DNA of 7,056 nt from a virus (Duplodnaviria; Heunggongvirae; Uroviricota; Caudoviricetes): positions 1 to 7,056 of the IMG/VR virus record IMGVR_UViG_2913167280_000008; one strand, given 5' to 3'. Positions 1 to 7,056 of this stretch are shown piece after piece. How positions within the stretch are numbered: position 1 is the first letter of the stretch; each line of letters starts with the position of its first letter. The position numbers were made by a program, and so were the translations under genes. The notes beneath the pieces are model-generated. The model did no database searches. It saw only the letters and a program-made list of their open reading frames with translations, and was not told the DNA's origin.

Positions 1-1005
1 TTAATCCCCCGTGGACACAGCGTGGACACTTACGCCACCTTTCAGTGGATTAAGAGCCACCGCATCCTGCAGGTAATCCGGTGCAAAATGTGCATATGCC
101 ATTGTTTGCTGAATGGTTGCGTGACCAAGAATCTTCTGAAGCGCAATAATGTTTCCCCCATTCATCACAAAATGGCTGGCGAACGTATGCCGTAGCACAT
201 GTGCAGCCTGGCCTTTTGGCAAATCGGGTTTAACTCTTTTCAGCATCAGGCAGAATTCCCGGTACTTCACCTCAAACAAGTTGCCCGTTTCTTTGGTTTT
301 GATCGCCTCACAAACCGCCTGCGAAATTGGCACCGTCCTCTTCCGGCCATTTTTGGTTTCGAGAAACGTCACACGGTTATGAACTACCTGTTCTCCGCGA
401 AGCTTACTGGCTTCACCCCAACGCGCCCCGGTACTTAAACACAAAAGCGCAACACGCCAGTAGTCGCCCTCCAGTGTATCGAGCAATAGCGCTACTTCCT
501 TCTGGGACAGGAAAGCCATTTCTCGCGGGGATACATAAAGAATGGAGATCCCCCTTACCGGATGTTCTGCATCCCAAAGGCCTATTCTTTTCAGAACGGT
601 AAACATGCCGGATAGTCGGTTCATGTACCTGTTAGCAGATGACGGTTTCAATCCAGCAGCTATCTTTTGAGAACGCCACGCGATAATTTTCAGCTTATCA
701 AGATCCACAGCCTGCATATCAGCGCCAAGCTCATTGATTATGTTGCGCAGTTGTTTCCGGTCTTCTTCCGCCTTACGTCTGTGTTGGCCGTGATACATCC
801 ACCACAACTCAAGCAAATCATTCAGTGTCCGGCGATCACGGTAACCCTGTATATATTCCCGCTTTTCAGCGTTCGCCATGATGTAGCGTTCAGTGGCCAC
901 CGCTACTGATTTTTTGTCAAATACCTTACGCACGCGCTTTCCCTTGCGTCCGTTCGGCCTGATGTCCAGCAAATAACGACCATCTTCGAGCTTCTTAATT
1001 GACAT
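1..1005 (-). CDS. int: Tyrosine site-specific integrase, P2 Int-like (about 334 aa from the ATG at 1005..1003; the ORF track extends to a TTG at 1020)
   Basis: Minus-strand ORF ending in TAA at 3..1. N-terminus MSIKKLEDGRYLLDIRPNGRKGKRVRKVFDKKS closely resembles my recollection of the P2 Int N-terminus. C-terminal catalytic signature is present: TGARWGE (Arg), HVLRHTFASH (H-x-x-R box) and LGHATIQQTMAYAHF (catalytic Tyr region). GGAGG sits about 7 nt upstream of the ATG at 1005..1003. Confidence 0.9.
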   Translation of the reverse strand: MSIKKLEDGRYLLDIRPNGRKGKRVRKVFDKKSVAVATERYIMANAEKREYIQGYRDRRTLNDLLELWWMYHGQHRRKAEEDRKQLRNIINELGADMQAVDLDKLKIIAWRSQKIAAGLKPSSANRYMNRLSGMFTVLKRIGLWDAEHPVRGISILYVSPREMAFLSQKEVALLLDTLEGDYWRVALLCLSTGARWGEASKLRGEQVVHNRVTFLETKNGRKRTVPISQAVCEAIKTKETGNLFEVKYREFCLMLKRVKPDLPKGQAAHVLRHTFASHFVMNGGNIIALQKILGHATIQQTMAYAHFAPDYLQDAVALNPLKGGVSVHAVSTGD

Positions 1006-1101
1006 TGCGAAGCCCTCCAATGAACCGCTCTACAATTTCTCCAGCCTCTTTCCAGCAATAATCAGACCAGACAAAGAGCAGGTCTAACCAGTTTTCTGGC
1101 C

Positions 1102-1422
1102 TTAGCGGGGTGATTTTTGGTTTGTTTCGGTTGAAACCTGATCGCCCTCCGAATCGAAGAATCCATCAAGAGAGAGAGCCGGAGAAATTTGCCCAACCTC
1201 CGGCATCGTTTCATCTGTTGATAACCAATAAGCATACTTCTTAAATTTTGGGTGTTTCGTAACCTTAAGTAAGGCACCCTCTGTTACTTGCTTCCCCCTC
1301 ACCTCATAGTTAGTTACCGTCCCATAAGGTAGCCCAACACAATCCGCAAACTCCTGGCGGGTCATACCTTCTGCTTCACGAATCAGGCGAAATTTTTCAC
1401 CCATGCTTGACAAAGATGCCAT
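1102..1422 (-). CDS. C: Immunity repressor, P2 C-like HTH protein (about 106 aa; alternative in-frame starts at 1431, 1440 or 1500)
   Basis: Minus-strand ORF upstream of and co-oriented with int, as in P2. Contains an HTH segment (MTRQEFADCVGLPYGTVTNYEVRG) and a C-terminal GQISPALSLDGF stretch that matches my recollection of P2 C. GGAGGA lies about 10 nt upstream of the ATG at 1422..1420. Start choice is uncertain. Confidence 0.75.
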   Translation of the reverse strand: MASLSSMGEKFRLIREAEGMTRQEFADCVGLPYGTVTNYEVRGKQVTEGALLKVTKHPKFKKYAYWLSTDETMPEVGQISPALSLDGFFDSEGDQVSTETNQKSPR

Positions 1423-1536
1423 ATCGGGCATATCCTCCATCGCAAACATGCCACATCGGGCACACACATAAAAAAGCTCAAATAAGCCTATATAAGCCAT
1501 TTTGAGCCATTCGAACGAATTAGAGAGATTACCACA
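1423..1536. promoter_or_regulatory. Divergent early/repressor promoter and operator region between C (leftward) and cox (rightward), by analogy to P2 Pc/Pe
   Basis: A 114-bp AT-rich non-coding gap between two divergently transcribed regulators; contains the phased direct repeats listed separately and TATA-rich -10-like elements (ctatataag around 1488..1496). Exact hexamers and transcription starts cannot be assigned with confidence by eye. Confidence 0.55.
1483..1510. repeat. Three direct repeats TAAGCC(t)/TAAGCCAT/TGAGCCAT starting at 1483, 1493 and 1503 (10-bp phasing); candidate repressor or Cox operator sites
   Basis: Read directly: aaTAAGCCtaTATAAGCCATtTTGAGCCATtcg. One helical turn spacing places all three sites on the same DNA face. 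Confidence 0.5.
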
Positions 1537-1824
1537 ATGAGCGAATCAGAGCTTGAGGGGTTCATTCAGGTAGCACCATACCCACTTGAAGCGGTGCCAT
1601 ATCAACTATTCGCCAAGATGATTGGCCGCAAAGAATCAACCGTCAGAACCATGATTGACGCCGCAAAGCTACCAACAATTGATTTTGTAAAACCGGGTTC
1701 AGCAAAGACGCGAGCATCAGAAAACTGGGTATATCTGCCAGCATTTAACGCAGGTATGCGCAAAGCGTTTTTTGATCAGCCGAAAGAACGCCGCGATGCA
1801 TGGTTGTTGTGGCTGGGGCTTTAA
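1537..1824 (+). CDS. cox: Cox-like excisionase / early transcriptional regulator (95 aa)
   Basis: First rightward gene, divergent from C. The segments NWVYLPAFNAG and RDAWLLWLGL match my recollection of conserved P2 Cox segments (YWVYLPAWNNG, RDGWLMWLGL). AGAGAGA lies about 8 nt upstream of the ATG. Confidence 0.85.
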   Translation: MSESELEGFIQVAPYPLEAVPYQLFAKMIGRKESTVRTMIDAAKLPTIDFVKPGSAKTRASENWVYLPAFNAGMRKAFFDQPKERRDAWLLWLGL

Positions 1825-1830
1825 TCATAA

Positions 1831-2037
1831 ATGACCAGCAATATCACCAGCGCCATTTTGGCCATTATGTTTATTGAGATAGGCGTAATAGCGATTTATC
1901 TATTTCGCAAGTTAACGGGGCATGAAGAACGCTTTGTTGATCTCAACATCGAGTACATCGCCGCTTATACCAAAGGGCTTTTTCCGGCTGCCATTGGCGC
2001 GGTGCTCATAGCGTTTATTGTTCATTTTATCGGGTAA
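1831..2037 (+). CDS. Small membrane protein, two predicted TM helices (68 aa), function unknown
   Basis: ORF begins 6 nt after the cox stop. Two hydrophobic stretches (SAILAIMFIEIGVIAIYLF and LFPAAIGAVLIAFIVHFI) are separated by a charged loop. The RBS is weak, so expression may depend on coupling to cox. Confidence 0.6.
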   Translation: MTSNITSAILAIMFIEIGVIAIYLFRKLTGHEERFVDLNIEYIAAYTKGLFPAAIGAVLIAFIVHFIG

Positions 2038-2078
2038 AAAACTCAGTAATTCATAATGTTGTAGTAAGGAGATCGGTT

Positions 2079-2186
2079 ATGTGCGGACTGGATAAGATGG
2101 ACCTTTTCTTAATCATAATACTGTCAGTTAACTTCGGGGTGTTATTGGCTTCTATGATTTTCATGCGGGGATATAAACAAAAATGA
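2079..2186 (+). CDS. Tiny single-pass membrane peptide (35 aa, MCGLDKMDLFLIIILSVNFGVLLASMIFMRGYKQK); not in the supplied ORF track
   Basis: Hand-translated. A strong AAGGAG RBS lies 8 nt upstream of the ATG at 2079. A 20-residue hydrophobic core is followed by a basic tail. Its TGA (2184..2186) overlaps the ATG of the next gene (2183..2185) as ATGA. Confidence 0.4.
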   Translation: MCGLDKMDLFLIIILSVNFGVLLASMIFMRGYKQK

Positions 2187-2536
2187 ATAAGCAACAGTGC
2201 AATTCTTCACAGCAACGCTTCCGCAACGGGGCGGAACGCCATGCTAACCGTTTCGCTACCAGTGCATCACGTAGCAACACTCGCTACAGCCTGAGCGAAA
2301 CACACGCTACACCTGATGGCCATCCCGTAAAACAAATTGGTGAACACACCTGGCTGATTGAGAAAGCTGGAATCGTGGTTCACAGATGCCAACGCAACCC
2401 ATTTACCGGAAACCGCATTTTTGCTCTGAGCAACGGCGACAATCAGTTTGGACAGGATTTCACGTTGTACGAAGCTCTGCGCACGGTTGATCGTCTGCTG
2501 CGTGGACAGAATTTCATTAAACAGGCTGATTTATAA
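2183..2536 (+). CDS. Hypothetical early protein (117 aa)
   Basis: Long ORF in the same orientation as the early operon, start overlapping the upstream peptide stop (ATGA). No motif I can assign; polar N-terminus, conserved-looking core IVVHRCQRNPFTGNRIFALSNGDNQFG. Confidence 0.6.
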   Translation: MNKQQCNSSQQRFRNGAERHANRFATSASRSNTRYSLSETHATPDGHPVKQIGEHTWLIEKAGIVVHRCQRNPFTGNRIFALSNGDNQFGQDFTLYEALRTVDRLLRGQNFIKQADL

Positions 2537-2546
2537 CAGGTGCTTT

Positions 2547-2825
2547 ATGACCAAAGACCATGCTCAGGGTGTATTTATCCGCTTTATTGATTTTCGCGGT
2601 GAGCTGTTGTTGCGCGCATCAGCTATTGATGGAGTGGTTCCGGTAGATAAAAGCACGGCCACTTACATTTATCTGAACGGCACACGCCTGACCGTAGAGA
2701 TTCCATATCAACACGTATGCGAAATTATTAGCGAAGCTGAAAAAGCACGTCAGGTTAATGGCAATAACCCCTATCTCGAAATTATCTGCATGGATTCAGA
2801 AGCTGAAATTCAGAAGGCAGATTAA
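2547..2825 (+). CDS. Hypothetical early protein (92 aa from ATG 2547; the ORF-track start at 2448 lies inside the previous gene)
   Basis: ATG at 2547 is 11 nt after the TAA of the previous gene; the track's 2448 start would overlap the upstream gene by 89 nt. No recognisable motif. Confidence 0.55.
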   Translation: MTKDHAQGVFIRFIDFRGELLLRASAIDGVVPVDKSTATYIYLNGTRLTVEIPYQHVCEIISEAEKARQVNGNNPYLEIICMDSEAEIQKAD

Positions 2826-2836
2826 AGGGCGTTGCG

Positions 2837-3079
2837 ATGGATAAAGAATATAAAACTCTCGTCAATAAAGCACTTGAGCGCTTTCATTTTCGCTTAAGCG
2901 CATCGGGCACTCATGCTGAGCTCGCAGCCCGAGAATCATTGACCAGGGCCATCAAGAGTATATACGACACAGCTTTTTACATTGACGACCCGGACGCGCT
3001 CGACGAGCTTTCCGTACTCGTCTGCGCCGCAGAAAACGGGGACCATATTGAGCCATATAAACTGGGAAATATTGCATGA
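2837..3079 (+). CDS. Hypothetical early protein (80 aa), acidic
   Basis: ORF begins 12 nt after the previous stop in the same orientation. Its stop TGA (3077..3079) overlaps the ATG at 3076 of the next small ORF. Confidence 0.55.
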   Translation: MDKEYKTLVNKALERFHFRLSASGTHAELAARESLTRAIKSIYDTAFYIDDPDALDELSVLVCAAENGDHIEPYKLGNIA

Positions 3080-3189
3080 GTATATTTATCTCATGGCTTG
3101 TTCTGATTATTTCGGTGGCCTGCGCTATTGGGATTATGCGAATTATTAATTCAGTAAAAAAGATTGAACGCTTTTTCACTGAAGAATAA
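3076..3189 (+). CDS. Tiny single-pass membrane peptide (37 aa, MSIFISWLVLIISVACAIGIMRIINSVKKIERFFTEE); not in the supplied ORF track
   Basis: Hand-translated. The ATG overlaps the upstream stop as ATGA (3076..3079). A 19-residue hydrophobic core is followed by a KK-containing tail; stop is TAA at 3187..3189. Confidence 0.4.
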   Translation: MSIFISWLVLIISVACAIGIMRIINSVKKIERFFTEE

Positions 3190-3275
3190 CCGCGCAAATA
3201 AGACTCCAGGTTAAATAAGAAAATGTGAAAACAATCCGCATTCGCGGAGGTATTCGCACACGCCAAGGAGGCGTA

Positions 3276-3479
3276 ATGGCAATTAAGCATTTTCCTGTCG
3301 TTCGTTTCACCTCCAGAGGACGTGAATACGAAGTTGACGAACGCCTGATTACCACAATCGACAAACACCGTTCAGAAAAGGATGCACATCACATCTATCT
3401 CACTGACGGTACTTACTTCTGCGCCACCAACGTGGTGCAGGTGAATCTTATCAGACAGGTACAGGAGTCACGCAGATGA
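3276..3479 (+). CDS. Hypothetical early protein (67 aa from ATG 3276; the track gives a GTG at 3225)
   Basis: A strong AAGGAGG RBS (3265..3271) lies 4-5 nt upstream of the ATG at 3276, so I prefer this start over the GTG at 3225. Stop TGA at 3477..3479 overlaps the next start. Confidence 0.55.
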   Translation: MAIKHFPVVRFTSRGREYEVDERLITTIDKHRSEKDAHHIYLTDGTYFCATNVVQVNLIRQVQESRR

Positions 3480-3721
3480 CCATTCTGGACTACATCGCTG
3501 CCAATCCGGGTTGTAGCGGTGGAGAAATCGCCGCAGCACTGAATACACCAACCACAACCATTAATGCGGAGCTACGCCGTCTCTGGCGCAGCGGTTCAGT
3601 CATAAGAAAAGAGCGCAAAACAGGCGGTCGCTTTTCTTATCAGGTAAACCCGATGCCGTTTGGGTGTAGCAACCCACTAACCCAGATGTTCAACCAGCTA
3701 CTGAGGGAAATCAGAGCATGA
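3476..3721 (+). CDS. Putative winged-helix DNA-binding protein (81 aa)
   Basis: ATGA overlap with the upstream gene, and GGAG 8 nt upstream. The sequence ILDYIAANPGCSGGEIAAALNTPTTTINAELRRLWRSGSVIRKERKTGGRFSYQV has the helix-turn-helix-plus-wing layout typical of wHTH regulators; this is a pattern call, not a database hit. Confidence 0.6.
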   Translation: MTILDYIAANPGCSGGEIAAALNTPTTTINAELRRLWRSGSVIRKERKTGGRFSYQVNPMPFGCSNPLTQMFNQLLREIRA

Positions 3722-3729
3722 GCACCTCC

Positions 3730-3774
3730 TGCTGCCGGAAACCACGTCGGGCTTCAGCAGCTCATCCGGCAGCA
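3730..3774. repeat. Perfect 10-bp inverted repeat TGCTGCCGGA (3730..3739) / TCCGGCAGCA (3765..3774) with a 25-nt spacer
   Basis: Read directly from the sequence. It sits in the 141-bp gap between the wHTH gene and the 121-aa gene. No T-tract follows on either strand, so it is not a canonical intrinsic terminator. Confidence 0.5.
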
Positions 3775-3862
3775 AAACAAACTCCGTTAATTCCTGTTCC
3801 GGGCCTTTCCTGCACCTTGCGGCGGGAGGCCTTCGCACATCTGCAACAAGAGGATTGCCGCA

Positions 3863-4228
3863 ATGATTCTCGCCGAAGACTTTTTTGATTACCTGCTGAA
3901 AACCGAGCGCGATTTTGGTATTCGCGTTCTCGACCGCTATGCAATGTATCTGAAATCACTGCCGGAACAGCAGCTCCCGGACGGCCAGATTGTTATTGAC
4001 GGGCGCTACATGGTTGGTAGCTGCCAGGATGATTACACACTTTCCCGCATCGAAAGCGGCACGCCTTCCGTACTGGGTATTTACCAGCGAACTTCATTTC
4101 TGATTGCTGATGTAATTGCTGACAGCATTCGCATAACACACCGTTATGCCAGCACAGAGAGCACCATGCAGGAAATCCAGCGGCTGGCTACCGTCTGCCA
4201 CAATGCACTGAGCGGCAAGGCGGAGTAG
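3863..4228 (+). CDS. Hypothetical early protein (121 aa) immediately upstream of the replication initiator
   Basis: ATG at 3863 is preceded by AAGAGGA about 8 nt upstream. Stop TAG at 4226..4228 is 5 nt before the GTG start of the gpA-like gene. No recognisable motif. Confidence 0.6.
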   Translation: MILAEDFFDYLLKTERDFGIRVLDRYAMYLKSLPEQQLPDGQIVIDGRYMVGSCQDDYTLSRIESGTPSVLGIYQRTSFLIADVIADSIRITHRYASTESTMQEIQRLATVCHNALSGKAE

Positions 4229-4233
4229 TCAGC

Positions 4234-7056
4234 GTGGCAACGGAGTACATCAGAAACTGGCAACAACCACGCCATGCAGTCGGTCGCGAGGGAACGGGGG
4301 AGCCTGTCCGCCCCTCCCTTCTTTCTTCCTGGCTGGATGCCTACCGGGCAGAGAACGAGCGCCGCCAGGAAATGGCTGATGCGGCGTTCTCCGCCACGCC
4401 GCTGGGCAATTTGATTAATAAAAACCTGGACGCACAGGAAAAACAGGACAAAGCCATCACACTGGCAAGAGAAGCCAGAAAACAGGCGTGTGGCGCGGTG
4501 GATGAAGCAATTGCCGCACTGCGCCTGCTGCCGTCCTATCTGCGAGATCCGCTTATCCGCCATCTCTCTTTCCTGCGCAAAAAACAGGAATCCGATCGTC
4601 AGAAAGGCAAAAAGAGCTGGCAGGCTGAACGCTACGCGCGCGGAACCCTGCGCAAAATATTCGAACGTCTGGAGCGCACCGACCGTCGCTGGCTGACACC
4701 GGGTTATCGCTCCCTTGCCGGGCGTGAACGCCTGGATGATTTACTTTACCTGCCGCAGCTCAACAAACACCAGATACAGACGCTGGCCGTCATGACAGCG
4801 GCGATGTTCAGCAGCACCTTCGAAAAACTCTGCGATGACTTTGGCGCGACCGATGGCGAGCTGACCATGGATATAACGCTGAAGGCGTATCAGCTGCTGG
4901 CCCGCATGGCGTTACATCTGCACACAGTGCCGCCGCATTATGACGCACTGACAACAGACAAAGACCGTAAGAGCGAACCGGACACGGAACTGCTGCCGGG
5001 CGCAATCCTCCGCCTGACCTGCGCGGACTGGTGGAAACGCAAACTGTGGCTTTTACGTTGCGAGTGGAGAGAGGAGCAACTCCGCGCTGCCTGTCTGGTT
5101 TCCAGAAAAACATCCCCCTATCTGAGCCAGGACGCATTAAGTGAATTTCGCGCACAGCGCGAGAAAACACGCGATTTCCTGAAAAGTTTCATGCTGGAAA
5201 ATGAAGACGGGTTCACGATTGATCTCGAGACGGTGTATTACGCGGGAGTAAGTAACCCGGTCCACCGTAAGGCAGAAATGATGGCCACCATGAAGGGGCT
5301 GGAACTTCTGGCCGAAGCCCGTGGCGACAGGGCGGTATTTCTGACCGTTACCTGTCCGTCAAAATATCACGCAACAACGGAGAACGGTCATCCGAATCCA
5401 AAATGGAACGGCGCCACCATGCGCGATTCCAGTGATTACCTGGTTAACACTTTTTTTAAGGCGGTCCGCAAAAAACTGAATCGCGACGGCCTGCGCTGGT
5501 ATGGCATCCGCACGGTGGAGCCACACCATGACGGCACCGTACACTGGCACATGATGGTCTTTGCACATTCTGAAGAAATCGACAGCATCGTGGACATCAC
5601 CCGTGATATTGCCATTCGCGAAGACCGCCACGAGCTGGGCAATGACATAACTCCGCGCTTTAAGGCAGAGTACGTTGACGGTTCGAAAGGTACGCCGACC
5701 AGCTACATCGCCACCTACATCGGAAAGAACCTGGACAGCCGCGCCGTGGATGGCATTGACCCGAAAACAGGCAAGCCACGCGTTGATCACGAAACCGGAA
5801 AATCAATGGCCGAGAGCGTGGAACGCGCCATCGGCTGGGCGCGCCTTCACCGCGTCCGCCAGTTCCAGTTCTTTGGTATCCCCTCCCGTCAGGTATGGCG
5901 TGAACTCCGCCGCCTTGCCAGTCAGATGGCCCGCAACCCGGAAGGTCCACAACGTCTGGAAAATGACGCAATGGATGCGGTACTCGCTGCCGCTGATGCC
6001 GGGTGTTTTGCCACCTACATTGAGAAACAGGGTGGCGTACTTGTTCCACGCAAGGATTACCTGATTCGCACCGCCTACGACCTCGCAGAAGAGCTGAACG
6101 ATTACGGCGAGCAAAGCGTACAGATTTACGGGATCTGGTCGCCACAAATCGGGGAATCTTCCCGCGTGTGCACGCACCCGGATAACTGGAAGCTGGTAAG
6201 ACGTAAACCGGAAGCGGAAGACAGCGCCAACGAAAATGGTTTTGACCTTCAGGGCGGCCCTGCCGCCCCTTGGACTCGTGGCAATAACTGTCCCCGTGTA
6301 CAGGAAACGGACAACAACGGGACAGAACAGCCGGAAGAACGGCCAGCACCGTGGCCGCAGCTTCCTGACGGCGTTGAAGTGAATGAATGGATGCGCTCAC
6401 TGAAACGGCACGAACGCCGGGCGCTGATGCGTTCGCTGCGTGACAAACAGGCAAAAAACAGCAGTGATGAAATGCAGAACTGGACACAGAGCCGCAAACA
6501 GCCGCGGCCTTTGCCTGATAACCACGAGTTACTCGCTAAAGAATGGCGGGAGTCTGCCGAATCTCTCGGCCTGCATATCGGTAAACAACAGATGCTGCAC
6601 CTGTTACGGGGCGGCAGTCTGTACGTTGACGGCAGCATCATTGCGCCGCAGGGATATGAAATTGTACGTAAACCGGATACCCGACCGGACAGCCGAATCA
6701 CGCAGCTCTGGCAGCGCCTGAGCCGTAATCACAGCGTAAGCAGCACGGAGATCCGCCATAACCCGGTTTCCAGCTATCTGAAACAGCTCGGTGCATCAGA
6801 CCCAGAAGCCGCCGCACGCCTGGCATCCACACTTCAGCAGGACCAGAACACCATGAAAACCCCCGTTACCGTGCTTTCTGACATGCTGCGCGCCATCCGT
6901 GACGCAGAGCACGCACAGAGAATCAGTGAAACCACTGAACGCGCCCACCGCAAAGCAGACCTGCTGCGGGGTGGCCTGACCCGTGGGAACAAAAAACAGA
7001 CAGAAACGGGATTCACAAATCCCGTAAATGAGCAAAAAACGCGCCGCGAAATATGA
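4234..7056 (+). CDS. A: Rolling-circle replication initiation endonuclease, P2 gpA family (HUH superfamily), 940 aa, complete with stop at 7054..7056
   Basis: GTG start with GGAG 8 nt upstream. HUH metal-binding motif in VEPHHDGTVHWHMMVF (H-W-H at nt 5542..5550, residues about 437-439). Tyrosine pair Y-x-x-x-Y in SYIATYIGKN (Tyr codons 5704..5706 and 5716..5718). Both motifs match my recollection of the P2 gpA active-site region. Position at the end of the early operon matches P2 gene order. Confidence 0.85.
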   Translation: MATEYIRNWQQPRHAVGREGTGEPVRPSLLSSWLDAYRAENERRQEMADAAFSATPLGNLINKNLDAQEKQDKAITLAREARKQACGAVDEAIAALRLLPSYLRDPLIRHLSFLRKKQESDRQKGKKSWQAERYARGTLRKIFERLERTDRRWLTPGYRSLAGRERLDDLLYLPQLNKHQIQTLAVMTAAMFSSTFEKLCDDFGATDGELTMDITLKAYQLLARMALHLHTVPPHYDALTTDKDRKSEPDTELLPGAILRLTCADWWKRKLWLLRCEWREEQLRAACLVSRKTSPYLSQDALSEFRAQREKTRDFLKSFMLENEDGFTIDLETVYYAGVSNPVHRKAEMMATMKGLELLAEARGDRAVFLTVTCPSKYHATTENGHPNPKWNGATMRDSSDYLVNTFFKAVRKKLNRDGLRWYGIRTVEPHHDGTVHWHMMVFAHSEEIDSIVDITRDIAIREDRHELGNDITPRFKAEYVDGSKGTPTSYIATYIGKNLDSRAVDGIDPKTGKPRVDHETGKSMAESVERAIGWARLHRVRQFQFFGIPSRQVWRELRRLASQMARNPEGPQRLENDAMDAVLAAADAGCFATYIEKQGGVLVPRKDYLIRTAYDLAEELNDYGEQSVQIYGIWSPQIGESSRVCTHPDNWKLVRRKPEAEDSANENGFDLQGGPAAPWTRGNNCPRVQETDNNGTEQPEERPAPWPQLPDGVEVNEWMRSLKRHERRALMRSLRDKQAKNSSDEMQNWTQSRKQPRPLPDNHELLAKEWRESAESLGLHIGKQQMLHLLRGGSLYVDGSIIAPQGYEIVRKPDTRPDSRITQLWQRLSRNHSVSSTEIRHNPVSSYLKQLGASDPEAAARLASTLQQDQNTMKTPVTVLSDMLRAIRDAEHAQRISETTERAHRKADLLRGGLTRGNKKQTETGFTNPVNEQKTRREI

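Follow-up and report, generated by a model that had tools for sequence, protein, structure and literature searches.

SidA of Caulobacter, MgrB, AcrZ and MgtR are single-pass peptides of about 30–50 amino acids (aa) that bind a larger membrane protein. Small membrane-protein modulators of this sort are covered by a review (PMC12648545), which also describes the type I toxins as small proteins with one transmembrane (TM) helix and short charged flanks. Small membrane proteins encoded in phage early regions are already a known kind, and small membrane proteins as a whole are systematically under-annotated and under-studied. Here we describe two mini-open reading frames (ORFs), designated ORF1 and ORF2, in the stretch of viral DNA IMGVR_UViG_2913167280_000008. 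The window, as the whole analysed stretch of 7,056 bases is called below, is the left arm of a P88-group Escherichia prophage of the P2 family (genus Xuanwuvirus, Peduoviridae) and comprises the integrase, repressor and early region. Comparison of the sequences leads us to conclude that both ORFs are protein-coding and selected for their amino-acid sequence, and they are very probably real small membrane proteins of the early operon.

The closest described relatives of both ORFs are annotated phage genes. ORF2, which runs from an ATG at 3076 to a TAA at 3187–3189, corresponds to P88 gp07, named 'membrane protein' (YP_009113050.1), at 94.6% identity over 37/37 residues (tblastn, NC_026014 2931..3041), and the two are alike in length (37 aa) and in directly following the DUF4754 gene with an overlap of 4 nt, with no substantive difference between them. 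The relatives of ORF1, which runs from an ATG at 2079 to a TGA at 2184–2186, are P88_4B11 gp42 and PhiR44_2 XSB42690.1, annotated as 35-aa hypothetical proteins. These have the same length, the same position after tm68 (the gene of a 68-aa protein with two hydrophobic segments) and a stop codon overlapping the next start, but they are only 63% identical to ORF1 and are followed by an extra 35-aa ORF (MNQQSAKRENN...) that is missing from the window. Both mini-ORFs sit where an earlier note on this DNA had placed them, and its description of them as unannotated is correct for an ORF track with a length cut-off, but not for ORF2 in RefSeq phage and Escherichia coli records nor for the ORF1 homologues in the two phage records just named. 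ORF2 also appears as 'putative membrane protein' in vB_EcoM-569R5 and as 'Prophage membrane protein' in UniProt, and the Prokaryotic Genome Annotation Pipeline (PGAP) lists it as 'hypothetical protein' in 24/24 full-length matches among 25 sampled E. coli genomes (WP_000021668.1, WP_000021655.1 and WP_000021666.1). PGAP skips ORF1; ab initio gene finders call both.

As an annotation, ORF2 is not new, while both ORFs are uncharacterised and neither has a family or a paper. Searches of Pfam, PHROG, NCBIfam and PADLOC returned no match for either peptide, and sequence searches of the PDB with ORF1, ORF2, DUF4754 and DUF4761 were likewise empty. Relatives of ORF2, retrieved with a natural 41-aa variant (P0014) as query, were confined to Escherichia and close genera, were at least 64% identical and carried no name. 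An exhaustive phmmer search of 1.84 billion representatives with ORF1 as query, and a search with its translation extended upstream (2061–2183), each retrieved the ORF1 cluster and nothing else. No paper containing the ORF2 peptide, DUF4754 or DUF4761 was found in a literature search; the papers on P88 and on C. rodentium phiSM do not discuss these genes, and the peptides are not among the content of a small-protein preprint on uropathogenic E. coli. Of 5426 complete E. coli genomes, 1372 nevertheless have the ORF2 region, O157:H7 and ST131 strains among them, so that a gene found in roughly 25% of complete E. coli genomes is still without a family model or a paper.

Coding evidence, junctions and membrane character

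Both reading frames are kept across 32–35% nucleotide divergence with a ratio of nonsynonymous to synonymous divergence (dN/dS, omega) of 0.23–0.29, and they are intact in 85 of 90 copies of ORF2 and in 39/39 copies of ORF1, which bears out the conservation that the earlier note had proposed as a check. The comparisons drew on 103 related loci gathered from IMG/VR, phage records, E. coli genomes and public assemblies. ORF2 was present in every P88-like locus examined, and it lies directly 3' of DUF4754 in every locus that has DUF4754. Its five exceptions are four frameshifts in the tail, three of them at an A6 run, and a divergent 41-aa homologue in locus L056 that was clipped by the 114-nt extraction. 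Selection on ORF2 was assessed with 34 distinct intact nucleotide sequences, in which distinct single-site variants were counted. The variable sites were distributed over codon positions 1/2/3 as 16/8/29, and the 25 synonymous and 28 nonsynonymous changes, set against about 24 and 84 sites, give a ratio of 0.33 (binomial p=7e-5), or 0.24 for the TM part; the other two forward frames over ORF2 gave synonymous to nonsynonymous counts of 11:42 and 9:44. The TM part of ORF2 also has the lowest nucleotide diversity of the region (pi 0.034–0.071, versus 0.08–0.17 in DUF4754).

For the L056 homologue, MSVFMSWLILILAIIYAVGIMRVINSINTIESLFTGDKRRK, the AGGAGG site is strong, and the start again shares ATGA with the gene upstream, which here encodes 80 aa and is very different. 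It differs from ORF2 at 39 of 111 nt (35%; 6/12/21 by codon position), with dS 1.22, dN 0.35 and omega 0.29, and when the same number of substitutions was placed at random, 0.1% of trials ended with 17 aa changes or fewer and no interruption of the frame. The natural tail frameshifts of ORF2 fall at A6 and T5 runs in codons 27–34 (window 3154..3177) and replace the last 5–10 residues, the TM helix always being kept; some of these variants are common, one cluster having 63 member sequences and another being found on 388 contigs. A 138-aa ORF antisense to ORF2 and the gene after it (2952..3368, minus strand), open in the window, was considered as a real gene and rejected as spurious, since relatives with the ORF2 His25 variant have a stop inside it.

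ORF1 is an accessory gene. It lies within about 140 bp that some tm68 loci have and others lack, and it was found only in loci that also have tm68; where it is missing, the DUF4761-type gene starts 12 nt after the tm68 stop with its own Shine-Dalgarno (SD) sequence. Three alleles were distinguished, those of the window, of locus L077 and of P88_4B11 (locus L002), all of exactly 35 codons without insertions or deletions. They differ at up to 35 of 108 nt (32%), with pairwise omega of 0.22–0.44. The window and P88_4B11 alleles are at that limit (35/108 nt, dS 1.35, dN 0.31, omega 0.23) and have 13 aa differences where 20.8 would be expected at random, and no simulated sequence that remained open had as few. 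Residues M1-C2-G3, D5-K6, D8-L9, S16, N18-F19-G20, L22-L23, M29, G31, K33 and K35 are invariant in all alleles, and helix residues outside the mid-membrane Asn-Phe-Gly drift among hydrophobic ones. The allele of the window is rare, its closest match (85% identical) being found in 2/5426 complete genomes, and that of P88_4B11 occurs on more than 1000 contigs.

The translation of ORF1 is MCGLDKMDLFLIIILSVNFGVLLASMIFMRGYKQK and that of ORF2 is MSIFISWLVLIISVACAIGIMRIINSVKKIERFFTEE. In ORF1, the N-tail MCGLDKMD (8 residues, net charge -1) is followed by a hydrophobic segment at about residues 9–29 and the tail RGYKQK (+3). ORF2 has no N-tail: its TM helix, without charged residues, occupies residues 1–21 at the N-terminus and is followed by an amphipathic helix RIINSVKKIERFF and an acidic end, with four K/R in the part after the TM helix. 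The maximum Kyte-Doolittle mean over 19 residues (KD19) is 2.59 for ORF1 (residues 9–27) and 2.68 for ORF2 (residues 3–21), the two highest values of the 92 window ORFs of at least 25 aa, and the two ORFs reaching a KD19 of 2.5 compare with a mean of 0.03 in 200 shuffles of the window. A hydrophobic core followed by a basic tail had been described for both peptides; this fits the tail of ORF1, but the ORF2 tail RIINSVKKIERFFTEE is not simply basic, being of mixed charge (4 K/R, 3 E) and strongly amphipathic with a hydrophobic moment of up to 0.87. Because of the charges flanking the helices, the positive-inside rule predicts N-out/C-in insertion for both. ORF1 has a Cys at position 2, and the possibility that it is a lipoprotein was rejected, as it has neither a signal peptide nor a lipobox.

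As had been claimed, ORF1 has a strong ribosome-binding site, AAGGAG at 2066–2071 and 7 nt 5' of its ATG, and both ORFs are fused to a neighbour by ATGA, the ORF1 stop overlapping the DUF4761 ATG (2183) and the ORF2 ATG overlapping the DUF4754 TGA (3077–3079). The ORF1/DUF4761 junction AAAATGAAT is retained in all alleles, and the ATGA junction was retained in 92/92 loci for ORF2 (one as GTGA) and in the 33/33 copies of ORF1 included in that comparison. The ORF2 overlap persists where the DUF4754 partner is only 44% identical (locus L052) or too diverged for alignment by eye (L056), and the gene whose ATG the ORF1 stop overlaps varies, being DUF4761, a 62-aa ORF or a 35-aa ORF. An SD-like motif is present in each of the three ORF1 alleles (AAGGAG, AAGGAGA and GAGGG), and that of ORF2 is weak (GGGA/GGGGA). 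The start/stop overlaps imply coupled translation.

A module of about 35 aa, 'MN(K/Q)Q...R(F/L)(N/R)RKYFE.G.YAG', lies between ORF1 and DUF4761 in other loci and is lacking from the window, where the equivalent position is about 2183. It is free-standing in P88_4B11 (L002 2682..2789), is part of a 62-aa ORF in L077 (2852..3040), and is fused in frame to DUF4761 in a 152-aa protein of the L081 type (2050..2508). This variation suggests repeated insertions and deletions at ATGAA(T/C)AAGCA(A/G)CAG starts.

The early operon

The integrase, repressor, cox, DUF4761, DUF4754, MarR-type regulator and gpA-like replicase genes of the window all match those of P88-like phages. Segment 1500..4300 is 84–97% identical in nucleotide sequence to P88-like phages and prophages and was found in 1387/5426 complete E. 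coli genomes; in relatives the prophage is integrated adjoining pdxB. The features of the window are as follows.

1..1020, minus strand: integrase; gene order and family match.
1102..1500, minus strand: C-type repressor; gene order and family match.
1407..1436, plus strand: probable early promoter Pe, promoter-like TTGACA-18-TATCCT between repressor and cox, in the position of Pe in the annotated P2 record.
1537..1824, plus strand: cox, Cox-like excisionase/repressor, first gene of the early operon; Pfam Phage_Cox E=3.4e-23, PHROG 272.
1831..2037, plus strand: tm68, 68 aa with two hydrophobic segments, accessory; PHROG 14475 E=1.5e-33 (unknown function), KD19 2.41.
2066..2071, plus strand: SD sequence AAGGAG of ORF1, 7-nt spacer.
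2079..2186, plus strand: ORF1, 35-aa single-pass membrane protein, from coding tests, allele comparison and ab initio calls.
2183..2536, plus strand: DUF4761 gene, Pfam DUF4761 E=1.1e-68; its ATG overlaps the ORF1 stop (ATGA).
2547..2825, plus strand: 92-aa PHROG 3800 protein, from the PHROG match.
2837..3079, plus strand: DUF4754 gene, Pfam DUF4754 E=3.3e-54; its stop overlaps the ORF2 ATG (ATGA).
3076..3189, plus strand: ORF2, 37-aa membrane protein, orthologue of P88 gp07, from coding tests, synteny and annotated relatives.
3235..3248, strand not assigned: stem-loop TCCGC-ATTC-GCGGA, at the same offset across loci and with compensatory changes.
3276..3479, plus strand: 67-aa PHROG 3459 protein, from the PHROG match.
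3476..3721, plus strand: MarR-type winged-helix protein, from the family match.
3863..4228, plus strand: 121-aa protein, from gene order.
4234..7056, plus strand: gpA-type replication endonuclease, 940 aa, from the family match.

TTGACA-18-TATCCT is the only sigma-70-like match on the plus strand of 1300..4300, and a scan of the same interval found no plus-strand terminator-like site downstream of it. Judged from the sequence, this site is probably Pe and would drive the whole rightward operon. ORF1, ORF2 and the two-TM 68-aa protein, which is present in 46/92 loci, are all on the coding strand downstream of cox, and the earlier note was right to count three small membrane proteins in one early operon.

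The DUF4754 protein encoded immediately before ORF2 is modelled by AlphaFold2 as a three-helix bundle (helices 2–22, 25–48 and 52–67) with a mean predicted confidence (pLDDT) of 87.9, and a Foldseek comparison of the model with the PDB gave no neighbour at E<=0.001. On the other side of ORF2, 45 nt 3' of its stop, the stem-loop (5-bp stem) forms the core of the stretch 3224..3274 and keeps its offset in 90/92 loci. Both arms of the stem have changed together in two different ways, to TCCGT/ACGGA in 12 loci and to TCTGC/GCAGA in 6, each a compensatory double change, and there are four loop variants. Read on the plus strand, it is part of a longer hairpin, and a second hairpin after that one encloses the SD sequence of the gene at 3276 (z=-2.9 for the plus-strand fold); read on the minus strand, with TTGTTTTCAC coming next, it resembles a weak terminator. 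As homology among loci breaks just 3' of the stem-loop, we assign it to the ORF2 module, in which it may serve as an mRNA end, as a site of processing or as a weak terminator. In a distant relative from Klebsiella pneumoniae (CP052639.1, L094 2501..3015), a DUF4754 protein only 34% identical is followed, again with an ATGA overlap, by a 92-aa soluble protein beginning MSIF, in place of the TM mini-protein ORF2.

Several other observations were made in passing. The gpA-type endonuclease of the window has 940 aa, compared with annotated lengths of 761 aa for P2 A and 694 aa for 186 A. A 56-aa ORF at 3718..3888 opens on the stop of the MarR gene (ATGA) and overlaps the next gene. In locus L001 the matching stretch is labelled by PGAP as the pseudogene of an incomplete 'ash family protein', and relatives have 99-aa, Ea22-like or other genes there; the 56-aa ORF is probably a deletion scar and no gene. 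In a search of genome contigs for DUF4754, the single locus retrieved (L004, NZ_JBQPOM010000071.1, a 226-kb contig) was labelled as Vagococcus sp. WN89Y, a Gram-positive genus. This contig has the Escherichia-type prophage region with an intact ORF2, and the assembly is likely to be contaminated or mislabelled.

Proposed role and alternatives

The explanation that we favour, with moderate confidence, is that ORF1 and ORF2 are bitopic inner-membrane proteins of a Pe-driven early lytic operon that act through helix-helix contacts. In P2-family phages the C-type repressor keeps Pe shut, and to judge from the annotated P2 and 186 records both ORFs would accordingly be silent in the lysogen and expressed once the prophage is induced or a cell is infected. 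Ribosomes would enter ORF1 at its own strong SD sequence and be handed on to DUF4761; translation of ORF2 would be coupled to that of DUF4754, so that both products of that pair would appear together. Once inserted with their C-termini inside, the two peptides would make sequence-specific contacts with a partner membrane protein of host or phage and would not form a non-specific pore. The working parts would be, in ORF2, the almost invariant TM helix and the cytoplasmic amphipathic helix and, in ORF1, the TM helix with its conserved mid-membrane Asn-Phe-Gly. The three-helix DUF4754 protein, synthesised immediately before ORF2, would probably be its working companion. For both peptides the outcome may be early host takeover, or the anchoring or modulation at the membrane of a neighbouring soluble protein. 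The reading of specific helix-helix contact is suggested by the ORF2 helix, which is uncharged and the least variable part, and by ORF1, which keeps N18-F19-G20 despite differences at 13 of 35 residues; a mechanism through a specific partner is nonetheless put forward tentatively. Expression timed in this way argues against a role in lysogenic conversion, and also against a poison that acts on membranes in general, since the phage would suffer from it ahead of its own replication.

Membrane damage is the alternative suggested by the earlier note, which likened the peptides to type I toxins, Kil-like proteins or exclusion peptides. As toxins of the type I, holin or Kil sort they would oligomerise in the inner membrane early in the lytic phase and depolarise or arrest the host, as TisB and HokB do. 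Their size, single TM helix and short charged flanks do fit the general description of type I toxins (PMC12648545), 35 and 37 aa and KD19 of 2.59 and 2.68 agreeing with small hydrophobic proteins of fewer than 60 aa with one TM helix; the conserved mid-membrane Asn of ORF1 could favour self-association, and the early-operon position is one that a Kil-type gene would share. The family labels themselves, however, were not upheld, as there is no sequence match to Hok/Ldr/TisB/Kil/Imm-type families. Pfam, NCBIfam and PADLOC gave no match that would place either peptide with Hok/Gef, Ldr, TisB, Ibs, ShoB, Zor or DinQ, and Pfam and PHROG gave none for Kil, KilR or Fil. No Rfam family of antitoxins or toxin mRNAs reached E<=1 in any part of the window, and no promoter-like site was detected near 2079..2186 or 3076..3189 on either strand, these being scans for known families and for consensus sites, which could miss a novel small RNA. 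No independent transcription unit with a structured 5' untranslated region was found either, the only promoter-like site lying upstream of cox. With neither an antisense promoter nor a separate transcription unit, membership of the type I toxins or of Kil is unsupported, and the 4-nt overlaps of both ORFs with flanking genes inside one operon argue against independent toxin cassettes. The ORF2 TM helix moreover has no charged residues, and a depolarising toxin at the onset of the lytic cycle, before replication, would be to the detriment of the phage. We therefore regard the toxin reading, attractive as it is, as improbable.

Two small early membrane proteins, Imm and Sp, serve phage T4 in superinfection exclusion. 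ORF1 and ORF2, and especially the variable pair of ORF1 and tm68, may similarly exclude superinfecting phages or block injection during lytic growth, an idea with which the predicted inner-membrane location and the early-operon position agree, and ORF1 and tm68 are accessory and variable as arms-race genes would be. On the other hand, the described exclusion families (T4 Imm/Sp, HK97 gp15 and P22 SieA type) gave no match below E=0.2 in Pfam, PHROG or PADLOC, ORF2 is among the least variable stretches, unlike typical exclusion genes, and there is probably no expression in the lysogen, the ORFs being downstream of Pe with no internal promoter-like site. A role in exclusion is thus considered unlikely.

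That the frames only ferry ribosomes through their ATGA overlaps and encode functionless peptides would account for the perfect conservation of these overlaps and for the weak SD-like motif of ORF2. It is very hard to reconcile, however, with purifying selection on the amino-acid sequences and the retention of their hydrophobic character. In relatives that lack ORF1, the DUF4761-type gene has an SD sequence of its own and begins 12 nt beyond tm68, and ORF2, being followed by an untranslated gap of 86 nt, would relay ribosomes to nothing. Finally, that these are chance ORFs in non-coding spacers might be argued from their shortness, the lack of a Pfam, PHROG or NCBIfam family and the failure of PGAP to call ORF1, but is most improbable, being contradicted by all of the conservation tests, by the shuffling test and by consistent ab initio calls.

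Several points weigh against the favoured explanation of partner-binding early membrane proteins. Translation and membrane insertion of both peptides are predictions from the sequence, the repression of the operon in lysogens is carried over by analogy from P2 and 186, and no relative of known function was found. A minority of ORF2 copies are frameshifted at the A6/T5 runs of the tail to give 45-aa and 34-aa variants, which implies either that the last 5–10 residues are dispensable or that these copies are decaying. Diversity is low at synonymous sites of ORF2 as well, so part of its conservation could reflect constraint at the nucleotide level or recent recombination, and its synonymous/nonsynonymous ratio rests on few substitutions. 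ORF1, for its part, is absent from many otherwise similar prophages and is therefore dispensable for phage growth.

A more elaborate form of the same explanation, which we put forward as speculation, is that ORF2 and DUF4754 are an obligate two-part module in which the soluble three-helix protein would be tethered or regulated at the inner membrane by the 37-aa anchor, with the downstream stem-loop included, and that ORF1 and tm68 form a second, exchangeable membrane module. If true, the two-part module would serve an early membrane-linked step, such as organising replication or disabling a host envelope protein, and this module or that of ORF1 and tm68 would represent a novel family of small phage effector proteins aimed at a specific host target, in P88-like phages that are carried by about a quarter of sequenced E. 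coli. Current understanding is not overturned by these results, and the toxin reading does not gain by them. Their value lies in the documented purifying selection and in the very wide distribution in E. coli. The selection makes both ORFs reasonable targets for functional study as small proteins, and argues for a family model and consistent annotation.

Comparison with known systems

Phage 186 offers the closest positional parallel, in that its small early-lytic genes fil (a cell-division inhibitor) and dhr (a host-replication inhibitor) lie between cox/apl and the replicase, as ORF1 and ORF2 do. By eye, the only comparison made for 186 Fil, neither Fil (75 aa) nor Dhr (66 aa) seems related to the two peptides or shows an N-terminal TM helix. 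There is no comparably hydrophobic mini-ORF in the early operons of P2 and 186, and homology of the module to their early genes was accordingly rejected. The type I toxins (Hok, Ldr, TisB, Ibs, ShoB, ZorO and DinQ) resemble ORF1 and ORF2 in having fewer than 60 aa, one TM helix and short polar ends, whereas the two peptides are encoded inside a polycistronic phage operon, with no antisense RNA or promoter of their own detected and no family match. SidA, MgrB, AcrZ and MgtR have the same mode of action as that proposed here for ORF1 and ORF2; the likeness is one of analogy only, with no homology.

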